UHGV virus genome: UHGV-0211320
Length of the DNA stretch: 36,929 bases
Direction: 5' to 3' (one strand)
Origin: a virus
The notes beneath the pieces were generated by a model, which was given only the letters and a program-made list of their open reading frames with translations, was not told the DNA's origin and searched no databases. Each line of letters starts with the position of its first letter. Position 1 is the stretch's first letter. Positions 23,588 to 32,063 of the stretch are shown piece after piece. The position numbers and the translations under genes are program-made.

Positions 23588-24376
23588 TCTCGCACCACTC
23601 CTCCTTAAAATAAAAAGACCACTCAAAGAGTGATCTAATATGTAATAGCAACCTACACACAGACAAGTCTGATACTTCCTGCACCTCACCACTGCCACAT
23701 CCCTCGGTTGCTAACGAATACTGAAACAGAATACCGTCTCTGTTCATGACCAACGCGACAGTACAAAGCTTTGTCGCAAGCAGGTTATCGTATTCCTAAT
23801 AACCCCAACTAATGTTTCTCTCCTAACCTACACCTGAGAGTGGCGCACGTCTGCGCTAGTATTTTATGCCTTCTAACTGCTAGTGGCATCCCGACTAGTC
23901 AGCCAATTCATCGGCATCCGATAAGATGAATTGTTTCCGTAGGTTCCTTAAGTCACTGGCAATGAATCGAACATTGCAACACCATTTTCCGATATTTTAC
24001 AGACTCTCCATCATAAAAGCTCTCACCTCTAGAATTGTCTATCTTTAGGGGAATTATTCAAGATGCCTCTTGCCCATTACCCTCGACGGTCTCTTGCCTA
24101 GCTGCATAAACTAAGCTCAAGTGTTCATTACCACTGATTTAAGTTATTAGCGTTACCTTTCCGCCACAGTGACACTATAAAATTATTCTCGGCTGCTACT
24201 ATTTTTTATTTTGTCCATTTTTAAATCCAATCATATAGACATTAAGACAGAGCGCAAAAATTGAAATTATTAACGCCGTCATTTCTCTTTACCCACCTTT
24301 TTTAATTATTTAGTTAAGTTATATTTTTCTGATACTTGGTATGATTTCATGAGTGCAGCTGCTAAAAAATATACTG
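23588..24376. other. ~0.79 kb noncoding, relatively GC-rich, hairpin-dense island (candidate structured RNA or cis-acting packaging/recombination region).
   Basis: No ORF of 60 aa or more in any frame. Several perfect stems: GCGACA/TGTCGC (23753-23777), GCGCA/TGCGC (23841-23857), CAATTCATC/GATGAATTG (23904-23933), GGTTG/CAACC enclosing ACAGA/TCTGT, and the palindrome GACTAGTC. A T-run lies on the plus strand at 24200-24215. Confidence 0.4.
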
Positions 24377-24514
24377 CTAAGAAACTTGGATTTTAAAATT
24401 AGCAATTTCATCTAAAGTTTCTTGTAACTGTTCGACTTGGTCACTAGCCTTGTTGAGCAGTTCTTTTAGTTCAGTCAAATCTAATTTGAAAGTTGCTTTG
24501 ATTTCTTTATCCAT
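24377..24514 (-). CDS. Small hydrophilic protein (45 aa), paralog of 24953..25111.
   Basis: RBS GGAGGG 6 nt before ATG. Sequence MDKEIKATFKLDLTELKELLNKASDQVEQLQ... The 31-bp leader is identical to that of the 24953..25111 gene. Confidence 0.5.
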   Translation of the reverse strand: MDKEIKATFKLDLTELKELLNKASDQVEQLQETLDEIANFKIQVS

Positions 24515-24521
24515 TTGTTTT

Positions 24522-24552
24522 CCCTCCAATACATAAATTAATAGACAGCAAC
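24522..24552 (-). repeat. 31-bp leader repeat copy 1 (plus strand CCCTCCAATACATAAATTAATAGACAGCAAC), identical to 25119-25149.
   Basis: 31/31 identity including the SD sequence, while flanking coding sequence has diverged. Confidence 0.8.
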
Positions 24553-24653
24553 AAAATAACATTGCTTTGATAATTTGGTATCGACCACTATAAATTTCTT
24601 TTCTTGCAATTATTTTTAATATATGCTAGATTATCAACCGATATAGTCACTGC

Positions 24654-24687
24654 CTGTGCTAGCGGAAACTAGTGCAGGTTTTTTGTT
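24654..24687 (+). terminator. Plus-strand-specific intrinsic terminator (9-bp stem with two G-U pairs, loop CGGAAA, then GTTTTTTGTT).
   Basis: CTGTGCTAG/CTAGTGCAG pairing works only as plus-strand RNA (G-U wobbles), followed by a T-run. Confidence 0.4.
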
Positions 24688-24721
24688 CTATTTACTCAAA
24701 AGTTATTACGATAAATTCTTA

Positions 24722-24749
24722 TTGTGAAAATAAATACTAAGCGTATAAT
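24722..24749 (+). promoter_or_regulatory. Sigma-A-type promoter for the plus-strand gene 24802..25026 (TTGTGA-16-TATAAT).
   Basis: Read directly: -35 TTGTGA at 24722-24727 and -10 TATAAT at 24744-24749. Confidence 0.5.
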
Positions 24750-24801
24750 TTTAGTTATCAGCGAGTGGTCCGCTGAAATAATTTATAAGAAGGTATTCCT
24801 C

Positions 24802-25026
24802 ATGGAAAAATCATTCGATGAATTTGTAAATCAATTCGACAAAAAATATTATGAAGATTTAGCAAATAGTCTTACAAAGTCTTTTACAGAAAATAGTAAC
24901 GCGATTCCCATTAAAGATTTAGCAACATATTCCGTAACAATGAGTATGCAAATCACACTTCATTATTTACGTGAATATCATGAATGGCTTCATTCAAATG
25001 AGAACCAATCTTCTGATAATCAATAA
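24802..25026 (+). CDS. Small plus-strand protein (74 aa) lying in the otherwise minus-strand region, convergent and overlapping with 24953..25111.
   Basis: RBS AGAAGG, ATG at 24802, own promoter, and a downstream plus-strand terminator at 25247-25277. No family recognised. Confidence 0.5.
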   Translation: MEKSFDEFVNQFDKKYYEDLANSLTKSFTENSNAIPIKDLATYSVTMSMQITLHYLREYHEWLHSNENQSSDNQ

Positions 25027-25111
25027 TCAAAAAGCCATGCTCCTCGCTACCTTGATTAGCTTGGAGCAACTCTTTTATTTCTCCTGAAGTACCTTCAATC
25101 GATAATTTCAT
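24953..25111 (-). CDS. Small hydrophilic protein (52 aa), paralog of 24377..24514.
   Basis: RBS GGAGGG before ATG at 25111. The IKELLQANQGSEE segment resembles LKELLNKASDQVE of the paralog. Its 3' end overlaps the plus-strand gene antisense. Confidence 0.45.
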   Translation of the reverse strand: MKLSIEGTSGEIKELLQANQGSEEHGFLIIDYQKIGSHLNEAIHDIHVNNEV

Positions 25112-25118
25112 ATTCTTA

Positions 25119-25149
25119 CCCTCCAATACATAAATTAATAGACAGCAAC
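25119..25149 (-). repeat. 31-bp leader repeat copy 2.
   Basis: Identical to 24522-24552. Confidence 0.8.
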
Positions 25150-25225
25150 GGATGATAGATAATAAGAACAATTTAGAAGGAGTTGAAATTCACATCCTTA
25201 TTCTTAATATTTCCGTTGCTGTCTA
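25139..25225. repeat. 13-bp perfect inverted repeat TAGACAGCAACGG ... CCGTTGCTGTCTA flanking a 62-bp spacer, overlapping leader copy 2.
   Basis: Read directly at 25139-25151 and 25213-25225. Confidence 0.6.
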
Positions 25226-25246
25226 TCGAAGCTTAATTAAACGATG

Positions 25247-25277
25247 AGGGAGATTTCCTCCCTTACATTTTATTTTG
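25247..25277 (+). terminator. Plus-strand intrinsic terminator AGGGAG-atttc-CTCCCT followed by TACATTTTATTTTG.
   Basis: Perfect 6-bp GC-rich stem and T-run, downstream of the plus-strand gene 24802..25026. Confidence 0.55.
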
Positions 25278-25368
25278 TCGATCCTGTTTCCTAATCTTTC
25301 GACACTACCATAATATCACGTTAAAACACTCAAAAACCCTACACTATCCCTACAAAAACCCTACAAAA

Positions 25369-25788
25369 TCAACGATACTGAACTAACACGCCTTTTTTGT
25401 ATGCTTCTGCAAATTCGATCAGCGCGATGGATTTCAGCTTCTCTACATTCTTTTCACCGTATCCTCGTATCAATTGCCCTATTTCATAATTAGAGTGCTT
25501 GTTTACGTCACAGAAACTATAATAGAGTATCTGACGGCTAATCAGACTAAGAGCCATCAAAGCCGCTAGAATCGCATCTCTCTCCGCTTCTATATCCATC
25601 ATTTGAATGATCGCGTCTTCTGCCTTATTACCGTGCTTCGGTGCCTTCGGCATATCCGTAATAATCGGCGACTTAATATCTATCAAAGAGCGACCTGCCA
25701 TCCGCTCCAAACGCCGAAAGTTCTTCAGCACATCTCTCGCATTACATCTTGTCTGTTTGAAATCTACCTCTCGTAACAATTGCATCAA
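25369..25788 (-). CDS. ArpU-family phage transcriptional regulator (late gene activator, sigma region-4-like).
   Basis: 139 aa with the characteristic ...LISRQILYYSF... segment. It sits at the early/late boundary. Confidence 0.7.
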   Translation of the reverse strand: MMQLLREVDFKQTRCNARDVLKNFRRLERMAGRSLIDIKSPIITDMPKAPKHGNKAEDAIIQMMDIEAERDAILAALMALSLISRQILYYSFCDVNKHSNYEIGQLIRGYGEKNVEKLKSIALIEFAEAYKKGVLVQYR

Positions 25789-25837
25789 GTCAAACCGCTC
25801 CTTTATGTGATATAATAAATGTGTTGGATTTATTGAA

Positions 25838-25866
25838 TCAGTCGGAGCGATCCGGCTTTTTTATTT
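25838..25866 (+). terminator. Plus-strand hairpin GTCGGA-gcga-TCCGGC (GNRA loop, one G-U pair) followed by TTTTTTATTT.
   Basis: Plus-strand specific (C-A mismatch on the other strand). An extended -10 TGaTATAAT on the plus strand lies just upstream at 25808-25816. Confidence 0.35.
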
Positions 25867-26157
25867 GTCATTGATTAGTTCAATATCCACCAATCTCACC
25901 ACTGCTAAATTCTCTTTACTTTTCGCTAACCACTTGTCACATTCCATCGTGTTTTCAATGCGGATGATTGCTGAGTGATTATAGAGATGCTCTACATATC
26001 CACGAAACGGATAGATGAACTCCTCTGCTTCACAGCGAACCATGTCACCGACTTTGACTTTTGGTTTCTTACGTGTTTTAGGGTTCTTTGTCGGCATGTC
26101 TAGCATTAAACCGCCGATACCATGACTACTAGCGTAAAATCCGTCTTTTAGTTTCAT
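25861..26157 (-). CDS. Hypothetical early protein (98 aa).
   Basis: ORF coupled to the upstream gene by an ATGA overlap. No family recognised. Confidence 0.5.
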   Translation of the reverse strand: MKLKDGFYASSHGIGGLMLDMPTKNPKTRKKPKVKVGDMVRCEAEEFIYPFRGYVEHLYNHSAIIRIENTMECDKWLAKSKENLAVVRLVDIELINDK

Positions 26158-28301: not shown

Positions 28302-28661
28302 TTAAAAACGCTCTTCCTTGAACGTATTCCGATATTTTTTAGCTAAAATCAACGGCACTTGATATTTATGACAAAACAACTTTGCCTTGATCTTAAAGTC
28401 TTTTGTCTGCATTCCTTTGACATCTACGACTTTGACTAGTTTGCCGTTTTTATAAAATGTGAAGTCGGGAATATACTCGATCTTACGATACTTCTTTCCA
28501 TCTAGTTCAAACTTCGGCATCAGCTCAAATCGTTCCTGAAGTTTTACTTTCCAGCCGTTCGCTTCCGCTTGCCACAAAGCTAGATCGTAGTACTCTGCTT
28601 CTGCGATAGAATCAAACTTGATACCTCGATGGATAGTTTTTCGATTACGATATTTATTCAT
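28302..28661 (-). CDS. DUF1064-like putative PD-(D/E)xK nuclease (possibly resolvase-like).
   Basis: Pattern ...GIKFDSIAEAEYY...IEYIPDFTF...VVDVKG...K, 119 aa, downstream of the DnaC-like gene. Family recalled from memory. Confidence 0.45.
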   Translation of the reverse strand: MNKYRNRKTIHRGIKFDSIAEAEYYDLALWQAEANGWKVKLQERFELMPKFELDGKKYRKIEYIPDFTFYKNGKLVKVVDVKGMQTKDFKIKAKLFCHKYQVPLILAKKYRNTFKEERF

Positions 28662-31057: not shown

Positions 31058-31729
31058 TCACTTCTTATCTAATTCTTTTCTCTTAGCTGCTATTGCTCGC
31101 TCCATCAAGGCACATTGCTCATAGCTTAACTGTTCAATAGTTTCAACGTTATCAGCTAAGAGCCCTAATTTATCTGTCTGCTCATTAACATATTCGATTA
31201 AGGTTTTGGTCATATCTTTACCCATCTGCTCATTGAAAGCTTCTAGAATCGTCTCTAGCATGTTTAATTTCTTTGTATCGATTCTAGGTGGTGTTGGAAT
31301 ATCTTCCCCTTGAAATACATATAATCCCAGTCCGTGTAGAGCCAATGCTTTCACAAAGCATCGCTTCAATGAGTTATTGATTTGCATTGCATTTGGTTTA
31401 ACAACTGGTTGGTTTCGATAATCTAAAACAGGAAATAACTCGGTTTCCGTGTGTCCTTTAACCGTTACTGAGACAGATACATAAGTCCCTGTTTCGTCCA
31501 TAAGAAAAGGTTTGTATTCCTCAACAAGAAAGTCTTGATGAGTTCCAGAAACAACTCTGTAGTGTTTATACTCATTAATAGTTACCGTTGCCTGTGGATC
31601 ATTCTTTTTCATAATCTCCCACGCGTGAGCCCAAGATAAATAATCAAAATTTCCTTTTTTCTTGAGAATTTTATTTAACTTGCGACTAAAAAGTTTTTCA
31701 AAAGTCGATGTCCCTTTGCTTTCACTCAT
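31058..31729 (-). CDS. Rad52-like single-strand annealing protein (Sak/DUF1071 family).
   Basis: YLSWAHAWEIM and NNSLKRCFVKALALHGLGLYVF resemble the RAD52 GWAHS...DGLKRALRSFG core. RBS GGAGG before ATG at 31729, overlapping the upstream stop. Confidence 0.55.
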   Translation of the reverse strand: MSESKGTSTFEKLFSRKLNKILKKKGNFDYLSWAHAWEIMKKNDPQATVTINEYKHYRVVSGTHQDFLVEEYKPFLMDETGTYVSVSVTVKGHTETELFPVLDYRNQPVVKPNAMQINNSLKRCFVKALALHGLGLYVFQGEDIPTPPRIDTKKLNMLETILEAFNEQMGKDMTKTLIEYVNEQTDKLGLLADNVETIEQLSYEQCALMERAIAAKRKELDKK

Positions 31730-32063
31730 CAAATTCTGCCTCCATTTCAGCAATGTATTTCTTACCTGGTCCGTAATAAGAGATATCAATCAAGTTATCT
31801 CTGTCATACTCTTCTAATGCATCAGTCAAGCCATCTTCGATGACATAAATGTATTCAGGTTTGTTTGAATGTTTTGATAGATGAATAAGGTAAACATGAT
31901 CCCAAATGCTCACAAAATTGCCCAAATCATCTTGATCACATGCTAGTTCTTCATCTGTCAGAAGATTACGTCTGATTTTTCGATTATTTGTTTCCTTGAT
32001 ATTCGACTTGCCCCATTCAGAATCAGTCAAATATTGATCTAAAGTGGAAAGTTCTTTATTCAT
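31722..32063 (-). CDS. Hypothetical acidic protein (113 aa).
   Basis: RBS AAGGAG. First gene after a ~180-bp intergenic region. Confidence 0.5.
   Translation of the reverse strand: MNKELSTLDQYLTDSEWGKSNIKETNNRKIRRNLLTDEELACDQDDLGNFVSIWDHVYLIHLSKHSNKPEYIYVIEDGLTDALEEYDRDNLIDISYYGPGKKYIAEMEAEFDE

Follow-up and report, generated by a model that had tools for sequence, protein, structure and literature searches.

The virus genome UHGV-0211320, analyzed here as one stretch of 36,929 nucleotides (nt; the window), carries its late genes on the minus strand, and in a region of small genes downstream of arpU the 31-nt sequence CCCTCCAATACATAAATTAATAGACAGCAAC is present exactly twice (24522-24552 and 25119-25149, minus strand), with 0 copies expected from shuffled sequences. 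A sequence-only reading of this region had described two small minus-strand proteins of 45 and 52 amino acids (aa) as diverged paralogs behind a leader kept identical by selection or gene conversion, with an independently promoted plus-strand gene of 74 aa between them. We describe the locus, compare it with related prophages, and weigh the explanations for its duplicated leader.

Results

The layout of the open reading frames (ORFs) was as first read, with the 45-aa ORF (MDKEIKATFKLDLTELKELLNK...; 24377..24514) and the 52-aa ORF (MKLSIEGTSGEIKELL...; 24953..25111) on the minus strand and the 74-aa ORF (24804..25026) on the plus strand, and the 31/31 identity upstream of both minus-strand genes was likewise borne out. 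Similarity reaches beyond the 31-mer to 41 nt (90% identity) and takes in both start codons. On the gene strand, the 31-mer is made up of GTTGCTGTCTAT (12 nt, the 3' arm of a hairpin), the 13-nt spacer TAATTTATGTATT, and the Shine-Dalgarno sequence GGAGGG. Copy 2 (25119..25149, minus strand) is in its native position, where it forms the hairpin 3' arm, the spacer, and the GGAGGG of the first late ORF. Copy 1 (24522..24552, minus strand), at which the copy-2 junction is duplicated, supplies the 45-aa gene with its ribosome-binding site and has no 5' hairpin arm nearby.

Judged by its gene content, the window is an Enterococcus (faecium-group) temperate siphophage or prophage, in which a replication module is followed by arpU (25369-25788) and, ~3 kb later, by HNH, terS, terL, the structural genes, and the endolysin gene. 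Its closest GenBank relatives, Enterococcus phages vB_ElaS_B1578 and 4995_1, have only 25125-25900 in common with the query region, and homology to them thus ends within 31-mer copy 2. We used a comparison set of ~130 related Enterococcus prophage loci; 80 loci were picked by ArpU similarity alone and are unbiased with respect to the 31-mer. These relatives are close kin, with conserved modules that are mostly 96-100% identical, and in some cases one contig was sampled twice as separate loci.

Among IMG/VR Enterococcus prophage contigs, 46 contain the exact 31-mer, mostly as one copy right behind the hairpin, where it leads at least six types of first gene without evident similarity (MKLS..., MDKEIK..., MESKYDK..., MNN/MKIASEKIDQ..., MEVEQIKYQ..., and MAILIIDE...). 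Divergence begins immediately after GGAGGG: mean pairwise identity is 97% inside the 31-mer and ~41-47% from 10 nt downstream of it. Among the 80 ArpU-selected loci the near-universal junction is the hairpin arm GTTGCTGTCTAT, which went unmatched in 4/80, and at least five alternative continuations follow it, the 31-mer type accounting for 22 loci and the others for 20, 11, 6, and 4. Because the leader precedes first genes without evident similarity and identity stops at GGAGGG, the 31-mer is the 3' end of a promoter-leader module and not a property of the small genes. Its perfect identity in the window needs no special selection or gene conversion, since adjoining modules are 96-100% identical between phages, and that part of the earlier proposal can be dispensed with.

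Nor do the two small proteins appear to be paralogs. BLASTP aligned them at E 0.049 over 15 residues only, hhalign gave 1.6% probability over 9 columns, and their matches lie in different PHROG families (phrog_3882, E 2.5e-12, for the 45-aa protein), so that homology was not detectable either by BLASTP or by profile-profile comparison of the two families. Conservation of the 52-aa family is confined to the N-terminal ~24-33 residues, its PHROG matches spanning residues 1-29 and 1-33 only, and its C-terminal part is encoded antisense to the 74-aa gene; tblastn against GenBank phages returned no match for it. Both families are mosaic, the N-terminal ~24-29 residues being kept and the C-terminal parts swapped or fused in frame to other families.

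For the origin of the second copy, natural comparators exist. Locus L017 carries the 52-aa and 74-aa genes of the window at 97% identity, and BLAST joins 25369..24710 directly to 24174..23698 in it. The block that it lacks (24175..24709) holds the second leader copy (31-mer copy 1) together with the 45-aa gene, a 27-aa gene, and a small RNA (sRNA)-like unit. The missing block is not bounded by the 31-mer repeats, and its junction shows ~4 nt of shared sequence. Other loci carry the same components in other combinations: the 45-aa gene is the first gene directly after the hairpin leader in L020, L031, L014, and L022, the 27-aa gene lies directly behind the hairpin in L050, the hairpin is joined straight to the position corresponding to 24174 in L051, and the arrangement of the window itself recurs at 98.7% identity in L027. 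A second copy, present in 15 loci, is always preceded by the identical junction, ...CAATGTTATTTT joined to GTTGCTGTCTATT (also written ...GTTATTTT joined to GTTGCTGTCTATT). After this junction, the full leader follows in 8 loci, and in the other 7 only its first 13 nt, then a continuation to the 27-aa gene. A longer partial duplication, of ~55 nt of hairpin plus leader, surrounds another small gene in L098 and its relatives.

The hairpin to which the 31-mer contributes an arm occupies 25138..25226 (minus strand) and comprises a 15-bp outer stem, inner stems, and an apical AAGGAUGUG...CUCCU that is invariant across the aligned sequences. An inverted repeat had been noted here as 13 bp with a 62-nt spacer; the repeat itself stands, and its measured size is 15 perfect bp (25138-25152 / 25212-25226) with 59 nt between the arms. 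Both strands fold well (z = -4.0 for the minus strand and -5.7 for the plus strand), so folding alone does not decide the strand, and the comparative data do. In an alignment of 37 distinct sequences, 98.5% of cells are standard pairs and 3 pairs show compensatory double changes, values reached by 0 to 3 of 500 shuffles. Where one side of a pair alone has changed, the change is in the great majority of cases a transition that leaves G.U on the gene-sense strand, where the opposite strand would carry A.C. Cells with G.U outnumber those with A.C by 113 to 7 among 126 loci and by 25 to 6 among distinct arm pairs; these counts are not phylogenetically independent, but the direction of the asymmetry is consistent. 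Strand-specific base-pair conservation thus shows the hairpin, as far as comparative sequence data can, to be an RNA structure of the gene-sense (minus, late) strand. Its function is most likely mRNA processing or stabilization, or some other leader function.

The hairpin arms also occur in E. lactis, E. durans, E. villorum, E. thailandicus, and E. spodopteracolus. A scan of GTDB species-representative genomes for an exact 28-mer gave 0 matches, and a search of the same genomes with the hairpin-arm pattern gave 10 stretches, mostly in Enterococcus species; no Rfam family matched the hairpin. A plus-strand 31-aa ORF within it (25152-25247), with a weak TisB match (E 0.099) as its sole Pfam match, was ruled out as coding because loop-length variants differ by non-multiples of 3.

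Upstream of the leader lies arpU (25369..25788, minus strand), a late transcriptional activator gene that matches phrog_248 ('transcriptional activator', E 1.8e-40), is 96-97% identical to Enterococcus phage genes annotated as ArpU family, and thus qualifies as an Ltr-family activator gene. Directly after its stop codon, three predicted ArpU binding boxes, TGTAGGG with an 11-nt period, occupy 25337..25365 (minus strand); the window holds no further copies of this heptamer, and the three repeats are those expected of an ArpU promoter (PMC3753634). In E. faecalis phiFL2A, three 7-nt direct repeats immediately distal to arpU were found experimentally to be needed for ArpU binding and late-promoter activation (PMC3753634), and the match to this published three-box layout supports the assignment of a predicted late promoter here. 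An extended -10 element, TGaTATTAT (TGATATTAT; 25310..25318, minus strand), can be read ~20 nt past the boxes and is conserved as GTGATATTATGRTAGTGTCGAAAGATTAG in six Enterococcus species, placing the putative late transcription start near 25303-25305 (minus strand). Boxes and extended -10 together would make an ArpU-dependent late promoter with a leader of ~185 nt that ends in the conserved RNA hairpin.

In loci from other Enterococcus species (L129-L138; compare 25303-25368 of the window), the boxes are of the TGGCGG (three copies) or TTATACC/TTTACTACCC types, and the same -10 element and leader (GTGATATTATGRTAGTGTCGAAAGATTAG...) are kept, which suggests that activator specificity is exchanged modularly ahead of a common leader module.

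The 31-mer had also been proposed as an ArpU-responsive element. Copy 2 does lie within the predicted ArpU-dependent late leader, ~155-185 nt downstream of the predicted start, but the 31-mer itself holds no TGTAGGG, and copy 1 has no ArpU boxes within reach; the 31-mer is not the ArpU-responsive element. A special cis-regulatory role for it is not supported.

The plus-strand 74-aa gene behaves as the independently promoted unit it had been taken for. Its promoter-like site, TTGTGA-16-TATAAT (24722-24749), was recovered at the consensus level and, with a hairpin in the 5' untranslated region (UTR) (24758-24776), forms an element at 24710..24790 (plus strand, identified by scan and conservation) that is present in 80 copies in 74/129 sequences, all antisense to the late genes. 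The cargo varies behind it: at least 15 families without evident similarity occupy this conserved slot, which marks it as a moron hotspot, and they include DUF1508, DUF1883, a solo Cas2-like protein, zinc ribbons, and several orphan proteins. Nothing specific turned up when the literature was searched for an earlier description of such a hotspot in Enterococcus prophages. As had also been noted, the 3' end of the 74-aa gene is antisense to the 52-aa gene, the two ORFs overlapping over 24953-25026.

The terminator attributed to this gene was found as an intrinsic-terminator-like hairpin (25245-25265) with a T-rich tail (together 25245..25277, plus strand, by terminator scan). It is the next plus-strand site of this kind after the 74-aa gene, 220 nt past the stop codon and beyond the leader hairpin. 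In other loci this hairpin is replaced by an unrelated AT-rich hairpin, and the T tract is kept on the same strand, which suggests a conserved terminator function that would halt cargo-direction transcripts before they reach the late promoter and arpU. The gene thus has the attributes of a moron, with its own promoter and terminator (at the consensus level) around a single gene in an operon, and it is present, absent, or replaced among relatives.

The 74-aa protein is predicted to be a two-helix hairpin (AlphaFold; predicted local distance difference test score 82), and its model has no significant match in the PDB. Neither Pfam nor PADLOC gave an assignment, matches to Cas5f and GGT being below threshold. 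Only near-identical clusters were found in a search of 5.8 billion proteins, and a search of 1.84 billion representatives added a few remote relatives of 62-69 aa that share a YHEWL motif; one streptococcal relative adjoins cI, on the lysogeny strand. The solo Cas2-like cargo proteins (91-95 aa; PADLOC Cas2b, E 4e-8) fall into four diverged variants (L012/L040/L059/L117, L014/L121, L042/L075/L088, and L062), and no other cas genes were seen near them. PADLOC matched no cargo gene to a complete known defence system. The 5'UTR hairpin, UCAGCGAGUGGUCCGCUGA (plus strand), looks like the terminal hairpin of Enterococcus sRNA 1C (Rfam Ref1C, RF02845); as a candidate for that family the cargo 5'UTR was rejected, since it scored 30.1 bits where the gathering score is 90 (E 0.15) and the likeness is limited to the hairpin.

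The remaining features belong to the block that L017 lacks. A predicted sRNA-like unit on the plus strand (24597..24690) combines a promoter-like TTGCAA-17-TAGATT, preceded by a TG motif, with a terminator made up of an 11-bp stem (24652-24679) and a T6 run. No ORF lies in the unit and Rfam has no match to it; it was seen in 21 sequences, and on the minus strand a promoter-like site (TTGATA-17-AATAAT, 24637..24609) overlaps it. The 27-aa gene (24199..24282, minus strand) has a strong ribosome-binding site and encodes a hydrophobic, lysine-tailed peptide (MTALIISIFALCLNVYMIGFKNGQNKK). Conservation of the gene extends to 22 related loci, some of which have it directly behind the late-leader hairpin, and the peptide matches no Pfam family and no toxin family.

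Discussion

We conclude that the two 31-mer copies are probably a product of ordinary phage mosaicism, in which leader-plus-gene modules accumulated by recombination in a hyper-mosaic slot. Two modules, each a leader plus first gene and each from a different phage lineage, would have been stacked by recombination, the first consisting of the hairpin, the leader, the 52-aa ORF, and the cargo with its promoter, and the second of the sRNA-like unit, a hairpin-arm relic with leader, the 45-aa gene, and the 27-aa peptide gene. The conserved leader would have provided the shared homology, and occasional illegitimate joins would have left partial duplications. The replication module of the window encodes a Sak-like (Rad52-family) single-strand annealing protein (31058-31789, minus strand) and a Holliday-junction resolvase (28302-28661, minus strand), both relevant to the mosaicism of the accessory slot; the former is a plausible catalyst of short-homology exchange, a proposal that draws on general knowledge of Rad52-like recombinases. 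Copy 1 would now simply serve the 45-aa gene as its source of a ribosome-binding site. Transcription of the cargo would cross the first late ORF and the hairpin in antisense and end at the plus-strand terminator, just short of the late promoter.

Several points weigh against this conclusion. The recombination pathway and mechanism are what we infer from the arrangements of relatives, and all promoters, terminators, and transcription starts discussed here are consensus-level predictions. Shared ancestry among the relatives inflates the covariation statistics, and our counts do not stand for independent events. Moreover, the 13-nt hairpin arm is kept at every second-copy junction without a nearby 5' partner, which stacking explains only as the relic of one event; the retained arm may have a function, such as alternative pairing or protein binding.

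The last point also speaks for a functional cis element, in which two copies of the 31-mer, or of its 12-13-nt GUUGCUGUCUAU core, would co-regulate both small genes, either through a single 5' arm that pairs alternatively with either 3' arm or as the common target of a trans-acting sRNA or protein. The 13-mer is indeed kept at 15/15 second-copy junctions, even where the remaining leader is replaced; ATAGACAGCAAC has three exact copies in the window and no others; and the 5' arm pairs perfectly with 12 nt of copy 1. We nevertheless regard a shared cis element as unlikely: the majority of relatives carry one copy only, the length of hairpin that is duplicated differs in other loci, 600 nt separate copy 1 from the 5' arm, and the one identical upstream junction of all second copies indicates a single ancestral event that was spread by recombination. 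The sRNA-like unit, a candidate for the trans-acting partner, pairs with leader 1 no better than shuffles do, and was rejected as a regulator of the shared leader, its pairing with leader 2 being marginal (uncorrected p ~0.03) and necessarily falling outside the 31-mer. It is highly improbable, in turn, that the 597-bp unit is a mobile element with a 31-bp (or 13-bp) target-site duplication or a site-specific, integron-like cassette at the hairpin arm, even though the unit is flanked by direct repeats, many different continuations begin exactly at the end of GTTGCTGTCTAT, and the distal cargo block ends in the same 13-mer. The ORF list and family searches revealed no transposase or integrase in or beside the unit, and neither a transposase nor terminal inverted repeats were found between the direct repeats. 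In addition, the block missing from L017 (24175-24709) is not repeat-bounded and shares only ~4 nt at its junction, duplications of other extents exist, and where selection constrains a hairpin, a sharp junction at its end is to be expected even if no site-specific enzyme acts. Of the earlier suggestion of an insertion that duplicated its target, the insertion thus stands, since relatives with and without the material exist, and target duplication by transposition does not, given the lack of a transposase and the 13-nt and ~55-nt duplications elsewhere. We are similarly very doubtful that GTTGCTGTCTAT is the crossover site of a dedicated integron-like cassette exchange, or the hairpin a leader RNA that organizes one, with genes stacked behind the ArpU promoter and the antisense promoter and guard terminator serving as a purpose-built socket for lysogen-expressed genes.

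A toxin-antitoxin arrangement had been suggested by the layout of the locus. As a type I or addiction module, it would place a small toxic peptide under the control of the plus-strand sRNA-like transcript or of the convergent plus-strand mRNA, and the convergent 74-aa and 52-aa ORFs with their antisense overlap, the sRNA-like promoter-terminator unit (24597-24690), and the conserved gene (24199-24282) for a hydrophobic, lysine-tailed peptide of 27 aa would all fit. However, the 45-aa and 52-aa proteins are hydrophilic, which is not what a hydrophobic toxin would require, and the antisense partner of the first ORF differs with each cargo gene. The sRNA-like unit is not tied to the peptide gene (14 sequences have both, 7 the sRNA unit alone, and 8 the peptide gene alone), and the unit has no significant complementarity to the peptide leader, its duplex energy being no better than that of shuffled controls. 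Pfam, PADLOC, and Rfam contain no matching toxin or antitoxin family. We thus give the toxin-antitoxin interpretation scarcely any credence and keep recombinational stacking as the likely explanation of the two leader copies.

Each component of the locus has counterparts in known systems. With the ArpU/RinA/Ltr late promoters described by Quiles-Puchalt et al. in 2013 (PMC3753634), the window shares an activator gene, three 7-nt repeats, a late promoter, and an untranslated leader. In those phages the first late gene is terS, whereas the window has a ~185-nt leader ending in a long conserved hairpin, and published Ltr-type phages have a terminator element between activator gene and promoter (PMC3753634). 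The terminator-like hairpin of the window instead lies downstream of the predicted start and faces antisense transcripts, and ~3 kb of variable small genes with a reverse-oriented cargo slot precede HNH and terS.

Morons, a concept that came from the comparative genomics of HK97 and lambda, are independent promoter-gene-terminator units inserted in operons. The plus-strand gene resembles them in its own promoter and downstream terminator, in its presence, absence, or replacement among relatives, and in its site between late-operon genes; it differs in that the promoter and 5'UTR form a fixed, conserved socket in which the coding cargo alone is exchanged, and in that the cargo is antisense to the late operon, with a terminator beyond the late-leader hairpin. 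P2 and P4 hotspots, which are variable sites for accessory and defence genes in prophages, are likewise fixed in position with conserved flanks and many alternative small genes, as here with the solo Cas2-like protein among them, but the cargo of the window type is a single small gene and the site falls within the region of the late leader.

In lambdoid and dairy phages, boundary or linker sequences are conserved where mosaic modules meet, and De Paepe and colleagues reportedly described in 2014 how Rad52-like annealing proteins carry out relaxed homologous recombination. As in those phages, a short conserved gene-boundary sequence is common to dissimilar modules in the window, which encodes a Sak (Rad52-like) protein; unlike them, the sequence has an identifiable reason for its conservation (hairpin arm plus ribosome-binding site) and is tandemly duplicated in one genome. 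Hairpins in the 5' leaders of phage mRNAs include the RNase III sites of T7 and lambda and the 5' stabilizers of Bacillus phage SP82. These share with the window hairpin a long near-perfect stem just upstream of the first ribosome-binding site and strand-specific pair conservation, but have no sequence or family relationship to it.

The duplicated leader thus comes down to known kinds of phage feature (a mosaic junction, a late-operon leader, and a moron) and opens no new question. The comparison does define a likely ArpU late promoter and leader for a large set of prophages of the Enterococcus faecium group, together with a previously unannotated genus-wide late-leader RNA hairpin that is absent from Rfam and has strand-specific pairing evidence, and a fixed antisense promoter socket with many alternative small cargo genes, solo Cas2-like proteins included. 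The promoter and leader, the hairpin, and the socket may serve as practical entry points to lysogen-expressed accessory or anti-defence genes and to enterococcal phage engineering.

Two minor observations arose from the same searches. An ORF-poor segment of ~150 nt (23809-23959) is 85% identical to an unannotated segment in the tRNA-gene cluster of 150-kb Enterococcus Schiekvirus myophages, which in vB_Edu_21C1 sits between tRNA-Asp and tRNA-Ser. ARAGORN found no tRNA in the window, Rfam had no match to the segment, and its fold z-scores were weak; it is possibly an undescribed noncoding RNA or a mobile fragment. Finally, GenBank entries PQ554527 (H1, 'Acinetobacter phage D2SVT') and OR846730 and OR848098 (H4 and H5, 'Listeria phage LM 4-11-1 / 4-14-1') are 92-96% identical to the arpU-leader module, and from this likeness their host labels look doubtful.

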